From assembly GCA_951406725.2 (NCBI GenBank), contig OX597820.1:86800001-86864000 (forward strand): a stretch of DNA of 64,000 nt, in the 5' to 3' direction. The stretch comes from Octopus vulgaris (lineage: Eukaryota). Positions 7,173 to 28,320 of this stretch are shown here, one piece after another (positions within the stretch are counted from its first letter, which is position 1; each line of letters opens with the position of its first letter). The position numbers were made by a program, and so were the translations under genes. Under the pieces are notes generated by a model that saw nothing but the letters and a program-made list of their open reading frames with translations, ran no database searches and was not told the origin of the DNA.

Positions 7173-9912
7173 AGATTGTTAACGTAAATACATACTCGTA
7201 AATACACAGAATATTTGTAATAAAATTTAAATGCTAACAGAAATATTGGAAGACGGAAATTTACATACTTCTCTCAAAGGCTCACTGACATCCAAATATG
7301 TTCTCATTCAATGTAAACCTTTACACACTCACAGATGCATACCTTGAAACATTGATAAAAGACACGTATACGAGCTCATATTGTCACACACGCCCACATC
7401 TACCGCACTGGCATTCTCGTAAACATTACACAAACACATTCTCACTCTTTTGGAAAGCAATAGCTTAATAAAACATTTTATCTGTAACGGATGAAAACAA
7501 AGAAAATCAAAAACCTCGACAATACAAAGGCAACAACAATTACAGCATCAGCAACAGCAACAACAACAACTTCAAGAAGAACGTGGAATATGTTGAAGAA
7601 TGTGCTTGAGTTAAAGAGTGTTTTGTGCCAAAGAAGGTTGCTGCCAAACTGCCAGAAATCAAAGAGGATTAAAACATTTAATGGATGATTCTGCGATGAT
7701 TTTATGAACAAACGACATATTGCAGAGATTCCCTAAAAAGGTCTTACTGACCGACCGACCGACCAACCAACCAACCAACCAGCCGATCATCAAATAATCG
7801 GAACACATGACTTTCACGGGTAACAACTGGGTGTGATTGGCTCTTTGTGCGCGCGCGTGTGTGTGTGCTGTTCTGTTTCATGAATGTGTAGTAGTAGTAG
7901 TAGTAGTAGTAGTTGGTGGGGGGTGGGGGGGTAGTGGTAGTGGTGCTACTGTTGCTGCTGATGCTGATGATGATGATTGTTCGATTGCTTCCAAGCATGT
8001 TGCAACAATAACCATCTCGTCTTTTTGTTCAAACACATTATACATCGAGGACTAATACAATCGATTGACAGAATAATTTAGAGCGCTCGGCACATGATTT
8101 TCGGTGCTTATTCCGGTTCCCATGTTCGGAGATGGAGTCCCGCTGTGGGGTCAACTTTGTATTCTATTCTTCGGTGATTTATTAAATATAGTACCTGTCA
8201 AGTACTAAAATCGACTGCCCGCTCCACATTTCTGTATCCTTCTCTACTTTTCTCCCCCATCCCTCCCATCCTTCCCTTTCTCTCACGCCATGTACCTATC
8301 TATCTATCTGTTGTGGAAAAGTTGTGAGGCACAGCATACAGTAAACTTTCTACTCTAAGACAACCACTTCCACTCTATCAGGGTGGAAAAATGAGATCGA
8401 CGGGGCTCTGGCGAAAAGGGCATATGATGATGATGATGATGATGATGTTAATGACGAGAATGATGATGTTGATGATGATGGTGGTGGTGGTGCTGGTGCT
8501 GGTACTGGTGGTGGTTCTTAATTATTATTATTGAATGAGAGAGTAGTGCAAGCCATCAAAGTGACACGGGTAAAACATACGAAGCCCATGACTACCCGTC
8601 TGGTCCACCGTGACTACCCGTCTGATAAGGGTACACGAGGCACATGCATCACAATCATATGTGCGCGATATGGTGATTTCAGATCAAGATAAACAGCGCG
8701 TACCCTTTCAGGTGGGGCCCAGTTAGAGTTTTCTTTAGGTCGAGAAGCCCATCCTGCTCAAAAGATCTTTGAATAAGGTTTGTTTGAAGATGATGAACGA
8801 AACACCCATGTTTCCAAATGTGAATTATCCAAACTTCTAAGAATTCCTTTCAACACACGGCTATGATGCTCCTCCACTACCTCTACTCGTGATAAGAGAT
8901 GCTCATATCGTCAGCTAACAAGAGACATGCTCAACTAGCTATGGTCAAACAACTGACAAGCAAATCTGTGGCATTGAGGAAAATATTTGTTATATCTCAT
9001 CTTTTATACCAAGACAAAACATGTACATGATAACGCTTCCAATCAATTAAGATCAGAAGCCATGAGAGTCAGTGCCTGGTACTGTATTAGGGCACTATAA
9101 TTTTTTCATTGTTGTTGTTGTTGATATTTTCTCTTTATCATAGGTTTTGTAGGAGCTCCTGGAGTCTTGCATGCGTAGTGGGCTTACTACCTGCATCCTA
9201 TGGTACCATGCTATTCGTTCTTTTCAGCTAATACTTTCCTGATTATGATCATTAAAGTACGACGACCTCCACAATAACCAGACTTCAATTTGATTTTCTG
9301 TTCCTAAGTTAATTAGAAACATAGATTGACGTGCTACTCATAAACCTTCTCGGTAGTTCAATTATTTGGTGAAAAAAATACCACCAAAGCAACTTAAACC
9401 GTCCAAAGGACGGGTGCGTTTGCTAGTTAAATATAGAATATACACAGTATCTAAGGGAATATATAGCTATTTCGTGTAGCTGCTGTTATACTACACCTCA
9501 TTAATGACTTGTCAGTGAATATTTTATATTTAAATAAAATTTCAGTATTGTCTTCTCTGCCCGCGTATCACATGTGATACAAAGGACACATTTACTCGGA
9601 GTCTAAGCATCATATATGACACACATTGGCAATTTTTTTCAACCATTAGTGCATCTTGAGACTTATAAAAAGAAAGCATTATTTTATTCAAGGGATACTT
9701 AAATGAAAATAAGCATGGACGTTTAGGACAAAATGCTGTGAACAGGGAAAACGTTAATGATTTTTTTCTCATGAAAGGTATAATTTTAGTTAGCAGGCTT
9801 CGCAAATGTGCGAGCCCATTTTACTTTTCATATAACGAAAGATCTTATGTATCTTCACAGTTTATTATATGATAATGAAAATTGATAATTGGAGAGGAAA
9901 AAAACTAGGTTG

Positions 9913-9986
9913 AGACTCCAGAGAGATTCGAACACTCGACCTCCAGTTTACTAGACTGGCGCTCTAACCAACTGAGCTATGGAGCC
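9913..9986 (-). tRNA. tRNA-Thr (anticodon AGT)
   Basis: 74 nt GGCTCCATAGCTCAGTTGGTTAGAGCG CCAGT-CT-AGT-AA-ACTGG AGGTCGAGTGTTCGAATCTCTC TGGAGTCT; cloverleaf with a G2-U71 wobble; T7 terminator at 9898-9904 on minus. Confidence 0.93.
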
Positions 9987-10266: not shown

Positions 10267-10340
10267 AGGCTCCAGAGAGATTCGAACACTCGACCTCCAG
10301 TTTACTAGACTGGCGCTCTAACCAACTGAGCTATGGAGCC
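10267..10340 (-). tRNA. tRNA-Thr (anticodon AGT)
   Basis: Same as 9913-9986 except a perfect acceptor stem GGCTCCA/TGGAGCC; T5 terminator at 10257-10261 on minus. Confidence 0.95.
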
Positions 10341-10704: not shown

Positions 10705-11447
10705 GTGAAGGTACGTGGCTTAATGGTTAGGAGTATTCGGTTCATAATCGCATGGTCGTGAGTTCGATTCTTGGTTGCGCATTGTGTTCTTGAGCAAGAC
10801 ACTCTATTTCACGTCGTTCCAGTCCAATCAGCTAGCAGAAATGAGTACTTCCTGTATTTGTCACATTCTGTGTCACGCTGAATCTCCCTGAGAACTACGT
10901 TAAAGGTATGCGTGTTAGTAAGGTGGCGAGCTGGCAGAAACGTTAGCACGTCGGGCGAAATGCTTAGCAGTATTTCGTCTGCCGTTACGCTCTGAGTTCA
11001 AATTCCGCCGAAGTCGACTTTGCCTTTCATCCTTTCGGGGTCGATTAAATAAGTACCAGTTACGCACTGGGGTCGATATACTCGACTTAATCCGTTTGTT
11101 TGTCCTTGTTTGTCCACTCTGTGTTTAGCCCCTTGTGGGTAGTAAAGAAATAGGTATTTCGTCTGCAATTACGTTCTGAGTTCAAATTCCGCCGAGGTCG
11201 ACTTTGCCTTTCATCCTTTCGGGGTCGATTAAATAAGTACCAGTTACGCACTGAGGTCGATATAATCGACTTAATCCGTTTGTCTGTCCTTGTTTGTCAC
11301 CTCTGTGTGTAGCCCCTTGTGGGTAGTAAAGAAATAGGTATGCGTGTTAGTGGAGTGCTCAGCCACTTGCACGTTAGATTCAAGGTGCAGGCTGTTCTGT
11401 TGATCGGATCAACTGGAACCCTCCTCATAGTAATCGATGGAGTGCCA
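10705..11447 (+). mobile_element. Family C SINE split by a nested family B insertion
   Basis: Head TGTGAAGGTACGTGGCTTAATGGTTAGG; body resumes after 11351; homologous in reverse to 17971-18291. Confidence 0.75.
10920..11335 (+). mobile_element. Family B SINE with duplicated body and 16-bp TSD
   Basis: TSD AGGTATGCGTGTTAGT at 10904-10919 and 11336-11351; the body starting GTATTTCGTCTG is present twice. Confidence 0.85.
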
Positions 11448-12042: not shown

Positions 12043-12296
12043 GAGATGACCCAGACTTCACTAGGGGACTGAAGCTGGAGATAGTACCCCCAACTTACAT
12101 TGAACAAATTACTTCCTGAATGTCAAAAGAATCTTTGAGTCTCGCCATGCTGTTGACAATCAGTTAATTTGTGCTTAGAGAAAGAATGCACCCACTAAAA
12201 TACCTAAGTCCAGGTAATTAACTCTTAGGAGACGAGAGGGACGATCCATCAGTCGAAAAGTCGAATGACGAAGAAGACTGTACGCCATATACCCAC

Positions 12297-12367
12297 GTGC
12301 ATATGGCATAGTGGTTAAAAGCGCGGACTACTAACCCCAAGATTCCGAGTTCGATTCCAGCCAGTGA

Positions 12368-12433
<66 letters not shown>

Positions 12434-12595
12434 TAATAACAACAACATCGAAAAATACCTTAGGAATGAGAACCCAGGTTCGAAATTTCCCCAAGACACC
12501 TGATGAAGGCTGGAGGGTATATCAGCCGAAACGTTGTGTTAACAACAAACAAGATAAGGACAAATATCAGTCAATTGTAAATAATATAAATAAGA
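12297..12595 (+). mobile_element. tRNA-headed SINE-like element with (AAT)n spacer and Penelope-type hammerhead tail
   Basis: A-box TGGCATAGTGG 12304-12314, B-box GTTCGATTCC 12349-12358, (AAT)n ~12372-12437, hammerhead motif 12495-12540. Confidence 0.65.
12495..12540 (+). ncRNA. Minimal type I hammerhead ribozyme motif
   Basis: Stem I GACAC/GTGTT, core CTGATGA, stem II GGCTG/CAGCC, GAAA, palindromic ACGT stem III, GUU cleavage triplet; the architecture described for Penelope-like elements. Confidence 0.7.
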
Positions 12596-13717
12596 CTGTA
12601 TTAGTTCATTCAATTTCCTACAAGAATATATATAATTTTGACATATGTAAAGTAATTACTTTTTTGGTGGGGCTTGTGAAAAGACCTTTATCCTTTCGTG
12701 TCGACAAAATAACTACCAGTTGAAGACTGAGGTCGATGTAATCGATTTACCCACTTCCCCGAAAATTGCTGGCTTTATGCCAAAATTTGAGACCAATATT
12801 TGTTCTGTGAGTGAAAGCCTAGACCTTCCAAACTCTTCAGTCCTGCTGTTAAGTATAGACTAACATACATAAAGTAATGGTCGAAAGAGAATGTTTAATT
12901 AATTAAGATTATATTCCCAATCAGTAAACAATCCTTAGTAATTCTTATAAAAATGAGGTTCCGCGCCTAAAGGGTTAAGGTGCCAATCAAACGCTGGAGT
13001 TTGATTCTGCCATCATGTCTGTGTGCACCACCACCCTAAAAATTGTTACCCTCTGCCTTAAAGAAGAAATCATATTTATAAGTAGCGTTTTTATTACCAA
13101 ACATAGATAATAATTACATATATAACACGTATGTATATGATACATATATAATACAAAACCACATTAAAATAAAAATTCCAAGCAGAAGAAAACACAAGAA
13201 ATAGTTCACTGACAAGTCCCGATATTTAAGGATTTTTTCGTTTGGCTACGAAAGTAGTGATCTCCACCCCATTTACCGTGGCTAATTATGGAGAAAAGAG
13301 TTGCTGTAGTTACACACTTTTTTATCTTCTTGGATTAAATGCCGCAGAGGTCAACATTTGCCTTTCACCTCTCTAAAATCGATAGACCAATAAGTTAATA
13401 TATTGGAATTGGAATGGATTAAAATATTATATAGGCCTATTCATTTTTATCCAAGGAAAACTATAAATCGAAATGTTTGTTATTTTTTTGTTTGTTTTAG
13501 TTTTTCTTTTTTTATATCCGTTATCATCTTCTTTTATCTTCTACCTGTTTCAGCTATTGGACTGCGGCCAAGCAGTAGCACTGCTTTGAAGGATTTATTT
13601 GAACAAATACTAACACACGCAGACACGCACACGCGCAAACACGCACACACATACGCACACACACACACACACGCACGCACACATGCACGCACACATGCAC
13701 ACACACATGAGTATATT

Positions 13718-28029: not shown

Positions 28030-28320
28030 AAGAGTTATGTTGAGTCCGAAAGGGTATTAGTGCATAGAGTGAAAAGGTAATGCTGTTCCAGGCGAAGTCT
28101 AGAATTGGTGGATCCATGGTGTAGGGCAACTCTGATGATAGTGAGGTCTGGGGTGGAGTGGTTGGCCAAGCAAAAATGATAGGCGATGAGGGTGTTCTTA
28201 CATAGGGGAACATCTAATAGGTGTTCGGTGAACCAGTCAGCTAGCCAGTGGCCCGTCTGACCAATGTAAAGTTTATTGCAAAGATTGCACATGATACTGT
28301 AAATGAGGCTAGGAGTTCCT
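28030..28320 (-). mobile_element. Penelope-like element GIY-YIG endonuclease fragment
   Basis: LIYSIMCNLCNKLYIGQTGHWLADWFTEHL...IAYHF...RLRLEQ: GIY-YIG with CxxC and downstream His residues typical of PLEs. Confidence 0.8.

Follow-up and report, generated by a model that had tools for sequence, protein, structure and literature searches.

The tRNA-headed, hammerhead-bearing unit analyzed here lies in a window of 64,000 nucleotides from Octopus vulgaris (the whole stretch of DNA that was studied) and is almost certainly a solo pseudo-LTR (pLTR) of an endonuclease-bearing Penelope/Poseidon element. The pLTR of a Penelope-like element (PLE) is in itself of a known kind; the unusual part is the presence of a tRNA-derived promoter in the pLTR of an autonomous-type PLE. 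We consider it probable that such solo copies are made when the reverse transcriptase (RT) starts inside the open reading frame (ORF) of the element and runs off the end of a transcript whose start the tRNA-type A/B-box promoter determines. The sequence-only reading had taken the unit for a separate Pol III SINE fused to a ribozyme, which is wrong, the unit being the pLTR of the autonomous element itself. Our literature search, which covered titles, openings of abstracts and accessible passages, found no description of a tRNA-derived promoter in a PLE pLTR; supplements or Repbase may already list the family.

Table 1. Coordinates, in the window, of the parts and boundaries of the solo pLTR copy and of a second PLE remnant
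Feature	Position	Strand	Basis or remark
9-nt target-site duplication, 5' copy	12274..12282	.	sequence; first 2 nt may be microhomology
Target-site duplication, 3' copy	12592..12600	.	sequence
Inverted stub of the head start	12283..12294	-	short; remnant of the family-typical head-to-head arm
tRNA-derived head of the PLE pLTR	12291..12371	+	5'-end pile-up; tRNA-Arg best match
Pol III type-2 A box	12304..12314	+	sequence
Pol III type-2 B box	12348..12358	+	sequence
(AAT)n/(AAC)n tract within the pLTR	12372..12447	+	length varies among copies
Codons 1-43 of the Penelope/Poseidon ORF, from ATG 12466	12466..12593	+	open frame; tandem copies; P0004 peptide
Minimal type I hammerhead in the ORF	12495..12540	+	cleavage predicted after 12535 (GUU)
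Insertion 3' end, nearer of two family end sites	12580..12593	+	family homology stops at 12593
GIY-YIG remnant from another PLE family, of greater age	28030..28320	-	no match to the hammerhead-unit family

Several parts of the window copy were as first described: the A and B boxes, at tRNA-gene spacing and matching what we take to be the consensus of a Pol III type-2 promoter; the long (AAT)n spacer, whose run itself covers 12372-12439; and the lack of a TTTT between promoter and ribozyme, the first T4 after the head being at 12636. Missed at that stage were the 9-nt duplication flanking the insertion, the inverted stub at its 5' side and the frame, which is open from its ATG through the ribozyme. 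The optional 30-nt tail is absent from this copy, whose 3' end is the nearer of the family's two end sites. Its transcription would likely start at about 12290-12297, and 12580-12593 would be the RT initiation site.

The assignment to a PLE rests on the copies found in the genome (2.8 Gb, 227 contigs). Head and tail form one mobile unit, as had been supposed: they are linked in 29 of 30 loci of the head search (the window's own included) and, where A-box loci were sampled by position, in 28 of 30. In long copies an RT-GIY-YIG ORF stops about 30 nt before the head, and among 30 ORF-anchored loci the head lies downstream in 25 and the ribozyme in 23. The unit thus lies at the 3' end of these copies, and it is present again at the 5' end, continuing there into the ORF. 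Since the tail is seen running straight into the ORF at the ORF 5' end (L216, L224 and L234), the tail is the ORF start. One locus (L242) is a pLTR-ORF-pLTR arrangement of about 2.7 kb, and another (L408) a complete head-tail-full ORF-head unit. The suggestion that a Penelope RT mobilises the unit holds.

In natural copies the frame through the ribozyme is open for up to 227 aa. An 847-aa PLE homologue from another source (P0004), 55% identical over RT-EN, begins with the same ribozyme-coded peptide, and is one among the 120 homologues listed; a homologue search with the N-terminal frame itself gave no matches. A natural 569-aa frame (L238) matches RVT_1 at E=2.7e-6, just under the cut-off, and has 2,980 homologues, of which those listed carry PF00078/PF26215 and a few PF01541. 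GIY-YIG-like and DKG motifs were identified in the ORF by eye. We take the clade to be Poseidon from its motifs rather than from a tree. The family shows a single ORF with RT plus a GIY-YIG endonuclease at the C terminus, partial tandems forming pLTRs (L242, L243, L384, L408), an inverted copy, truncated at its 5' side, next to the 5' end (in 54 of the 95 copies sampled by position), an optional tail of 30-40 nt defining two 3' ends, and a minimal hammerhead in the pLTR, as expected of endonuclease-bearing Penelope/Poseidon elements; for PLE structure we refer to the accessible text of PMC8557442. It shares with tRNA-derived SINEs a tRNA-derived A/B-box head at the 5' end. An independent non-coding family that has only its 3' tail in common with a partner is not what was found, since the autonomous element contains the entire unit, its head too, and no frequent variant is confined to short copies.

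Among host tRNAs (30 fetched loci; Arg, Ala, Thr, Cys, Lys and Glu compared), the head aligns best with tRNA-Arg, with a score of 59 against a shuffle maximum of 43. It retains both boxes and their spacing without a cloverleaf. ARAGORN did not call it as a tRNA, and Rfam at E<=10 on the window returned neither a tRNA nor a hammerhead match at the unit.

The full hammerhead consensus claimed at first was found again element by element in the window: stem I (12495-99/12536-40) has 5 bp, CUGAUGA (12500-06) is followed by an extra A (12507), stem II pairs 12508-13 with 12522-27, GAAA occupies 12528-31, and there are a palindromic CG (12532-33) and a GUU triplet with the predicted cut after 12535. 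Chance alone would give 0.02 occurrences of this core pattern in the window, and there is one. The ribozyme was rightly recognized as of the minimal Penelope type, its features agreeing with those in the accessible text of PMC4209133. Among 243 unselected copies the hammerhead is fully intact in 47; divergence is 3.8% in the core and 4.6% elsewhere, that is, the core decays like its flanks, and the stems show nearly no covariation (0-4 compensatory changes per pair). Such neutral decay and scant covariation are expected for dead copies of a few masters and are mute on ribozyme activity. Because dispersed copies decay neutrally, the intact ribozyme of the window copy is not special. The sole subfamily-level change in the core, at the tolerated N7 position (53/243), is linked to a second variant.

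The distribution of copy numbers along the element was analyzed with exact 20-mers. They gave 1,013 matches for the ORF end, 4,670 for the A box 40 nt further on and 9,518 for the ribozyme core, whose reversed control had 0; a 20-mer in the ORF just past the tail had 93. Calibration by the fractions of exact matches in small samples (23/53 for the ORF end, 37/97 for the A box, 27/87 for the ribozyme) leads to genome-wide estimates of ~2,300 ORF ends, ~12,200 heads and ~30,700 ribozyme arms, with a 5.2-fold cliff at the head start over about 40 nt. The 5' ends fall at the same place. In 44 of 56 arms they lie 3-14 nt before the A box (mode 14 nt, 13/56), a 12-nt span for which 5.9% would be expected from the truncation rate within the head; 4 arms stop slightly further upstream, and the other 8 extend into the ORF. 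For a secondary peak (7/56) we considered trimming by RNase P at tRNA position 1 but rejected it, because the acceptor stem, as read from the sequence, cannot form. Nine of the 91 ORF-start sites (93 matches genome-wide) reach the head in sense: 6 stop at the head start, 2 inside the head, and 1 continues into an upstream ORF.

A second sample was made of 95 ribozyme-bearing arms at 90 loci, chosen by exact 20-mer in the first 22 Mb of contig C1. They comprise 25 arms that start at the head start, 12 that start inside the head, 28 for which no head was found, 21 that start inside the tail, 7 that extend into the ORF and 2 that end in the 3' UTR. An inverted arm adjoins 54 of the 95, and 23 of the 27 head-complete copies. 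The 3' ends form two classes, situated 55-85 nt past the predicted cut; their proportions are similar in a set of head-start copies (near site 51, far site 42, other 11) and in ORF-linked copies (19, 13 and 7, respectively). The 104 head-start and 39 ORF-linked units carry the same subfamily variants, with divergences of 0.049 and 0.053; no variant at a frequency of at least 12% is private to short copies. At some sites variant proportions differ between the two classes (p down to 0.002, in a biased sample). From these comparisons of sequence we read the short copies as probable by-products of autonomous masters.

Other arrangements were observed among the copies. Many of the ORF-start copies at L321-L350 consist of short ORF pieces followed by tail sequence again, which suggests that the template was jumped or that additional priming sites lie 70-250 nt deeper in the ORF. 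At L007, L027, L111, L160, L209 and L210, headless tails abut other repeats at the (AAT)n 3' ends of the latter, which may reflect targeting of AAT or microhomology. At L126 a segment of ~150 nt (ORF end plus 3' UTR) is present in five extra tandem copies just before the head.

Under the mechanism we favor, the RNA of the element would begin at the head and be ordered head, AAT tract, ATG, ribozyme, ORF. The PLE protein would nick AT-rich DNA and prime ~125 or ~155 nt into the ORF, and the RT would run off where the tRNA-derived promoter had fixed the beginning of the transcript. A SINE-like copy of ~300 nt would then result from priming in the upstream repeat, long 5'-truncated copies from priming in the downstream repeat, and head-to-head pairs from priming on both strands. 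A precedent exists in Poseidon_Ac, for which in vitro RT initiation at two internal ORF sites produces the optional tail, according to the accessible text of PMC11167929. The stops at the head start, also in copies that continue into the ORF, are the trace expected of a transcript starting there. A point against this explanation is that junctions could be drawn to the head start by the mini-palindrome present there.

It is unlikely that solo pLTRs became Pol III source genes of their own and spread in trans as a Penelope-mobilised SINE with a PLE parent. Head-start copies do outnumber ORF-linked ones by about 4:1 (25 vs 7 of the 95), their boxes are intact with no T4 in the unit, so that the window copy could be transcribed as far as the T4 downstream of it, the differing variant proportions point the same way, and non-autonomous PLE derivatives are known (accessible text of bioRxiv 10.64898/2026.07.22.740005 and PMC8557442). 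Yet no frequent variant is private to short copies, both subfamilies yield both classes at the same age, and head-start ends are also seen on copies continuing into the ORF. Moreover, Poseidon_Ac needs ORF sequence past its priming site (172 nt vs 111-118; PMC11167929, in its accessible part), a sequence that solo copies would lack. Less credible still is an account in which the head is a relic left by an inserted SINE, either a Pol II promoter or host read-through supplies the RNA, and the pile-up of ends marks a hot spot of template switching or fold-back at the palindrome. An inverted arm does abut 18 of 30 A-box arms as well as most head-complete copies, the palindrome supplies microhomology at many junctions, and the internal promoter of D. 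virilis Penelope is described, in the accessible text of PMC2377424, as resembling TATA-less LINE promoters. Against this, 6 of 7 non-inverted, non-ORF A-box arms stop at the head start too, as do four loci without an inverted arm (L327, L331, L380, L405); both boxes and their spacing are kept though ARAGORN and Rfam see no cloverleaf, and the sense strand has no shared T4.

The idea that self-cleavage sets the RNA end, also put forward in the sequence-only reading, is not borne out, and a retrozyme-like linear or circular monomer appears very improbable. The complete motif, with its single subfamily-level core change at a tolerated position, speaks for it, as do tandem arrays of tail plus ORF start at three loci; but copies run 55-85 nt beyond the cut, so self-cleavage does not set the copy end. 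The 21 tail-truncated copies have scattered 5' ends; as this sample was picked by a 20-mer lying upstream of the cut, ends at the cut itself could not appear in it. RNA-seq reads cross the cut site, and ribozyme mutants of Poseidon_Ac still insert (PMC11167929, accessible text). The octopus ribozyme would be nearly silent as a monomer, any action being as a dimer or protein-aided, and its cleavage would remove the start codon from the ORF and not define the copied unit.

We therefore return to the promoter-set start, and to the polymerase that would use it. As most copies start at the tRNA-type promoter, the RNA of the element is likely made from that promoter, with transcription probably starting at the tRNA-like head. 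On the sense strand no TTTT site is present in more than 6% of 233 covering segments. The trimmed family frames contain 54 T4 runs, against 122 under synonymous shuffling, and 30 further long copies, at loci partly the same, have a mean of 0.46 T4/kb. This deficit is essentially that of one source sequence, for which ~3.7 runs are expected and the chance of none is ~0.025. Runs of G4 and A5 likewise fall short (ratios 0.41 and 0.66) and T4 is equally low in a CRE-like LINE control (0.67/kb), while the other PLE family, with a higher T content, has 6.5 T4/kb. A second Poseidon family was sought as a T4 control and none was obtained, all 30 fetched matches belonging to the family of the window. 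In three RNA-seq runs of one study, whose library may be unstranded, there was no strand bias and no pile-up of read beginnings or ends at the head or the cut. Reads span the cut site, a fraction of 0.91-0.92 run on into unrelated sequence, and depth tracks copy number; the signal looks like passive host read-through.

What speaks against Pol III is that its RNA is without a normal cap and poly(A). It has also been argued, in the accessible part of PMC10886601, that autonomous elements must use Pol II. The polymerase of the octopus element may possibly be Pol III, with about an even chance, which is the least certain step of the whole reading. A fuller version is possible, though somewhat less likely than not: an autonomous PLE would have captured a tRNA-Arg-like promoter, Pol III would make the whole 2.7-kb RNA, TTTT terminators would have been purged from the ORF, and internal priming near the 5' end would yield ~10,000 SINE-like copies.

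The window holds other elements of note. Its GIY-YIG remnant had been proposed as the PLE partner of the unit, a role we reject since neither blastn nor tblastx matches it to the family. Relatives of the remnant are 73-85% identical, and two loci of its family carry a different hammerhead with no A/B boxes upstream. A second family of minimal hammerheads, with T-rich flanks and no upstream A/B boxes, was seen elsewhere in the genome at L068, L160, L277, L279 and L455; two of its copies are those at loci of the remnant's family. ARAGORN identifies two tRNA-Thr(AGT) genes on the reverse strand of the window (9912-9986 and 10267-10340). Two tandem copies of a 184-nt repeat (94% matches) lie at 10970-11341, and presumably resemble a CORE-type SINE body. 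OR1 and OR2 are cited as CORE-SINEs.

These results correct an easy misannotation, as ~12,000 'tRNA SINE' heads of this genome are PLE terminal repeats. On the genomic side, the set of copies supports internal RT initiation, and it points to where transcription of a PLE likely begins, a position known for very few families. If Pol III does read the full ORF, the question arises of how translation proceeds on an RNA that has no cap and carries a ribozyme 70 nt past the start codon. Reading of the full ORF by Pol III would moreover offer a route to the birth of a SINE inside an autonomous element, and would contradict the need of autonomous retroelements for Pol II, as stated in the accessible text of PMC10886601.

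The closest known system is compared on the accessible text of PMC11167929. Poseidon_Ac of the green anole likewise has an ORF with RT and C-terminal GIY-YIG, a pLTR hammerhead that overlaps the ORF start, two insertion 3' ends in the ORF that define an optional tail, and AT-rich targets. The octopus unit differs in that its pLTR opens with an A/B-box segment of tRNA origin and an AAT tract, with 5' ends piling up at it, and in that the whole ribozyme core is downstream of the ATG; the accessible text describes no tRNA-like part for Poseidon_Ac. With the minimal type I hammerheads of metazoan PLEs, as far as PMC4209133 is accessible, it shares an extra nucleotide between 9 and 10.1, the G10.1-C11.1 pair, a palindromic 15.2-16.2, a short helix I and an occurrence mostly as solo or opposite-strand pairs; it is set apart from the motifs given there by the GUU triplet, the Pol III-type promoter upstream and a helix II of 6 bp vs 7-8 bp in schistosome motifs.

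The Schistosoma Sm-alpha/Sj-alpha retroposons also have a Pol III-type promoter followed by a hammerhead, but are non-coding repeats cleaved out of multimers (PMC6765202, accessible text), whereas the octopus unit belongs to an autonomous element, of which it makes up the terminal repeat and the ORF start, and does not end at the cut. Head-to-tail repeats with RNA cut from ribozyme to ribozyme, typical of retrozymes and Sm-alpha, are not the organization of the octopus family; arrays occur at 3 loci among the 91 ORF-start sites. Animal non-LTR retrozymes likewise derive from PLE pLTRs and carry a type I hammerhead (accessible text of bioRxiv 10.64898/2026.07.22.740005), while octopus copies are dispersed or head-to-head rather than head-to-tail, apart from these three small arrays. 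The latter are L396 (G000:C24:27708284-27710829), L402 (C29:8136572-8138667) and L407 (C29:24779115-24781210); their units of ~250-280 nt consist of the tail and the first 70-120 nt of ORF beyond it, with a ribozyme region in each, and they are retrozyme-like tandems that apparently arose from the octopus PLE. Finally, TRIMp3 elements (Cassandra, Helenus, Ajax) also bear a Pol III promoter derived from a small RNA in their terminal repeat; following the accessible part of PMC10886601, these are non-autonomous LTR elements, whereas the octopus family is an autonomous-type PLE with an ORF of ~2.5 kb downstream of its promoter.
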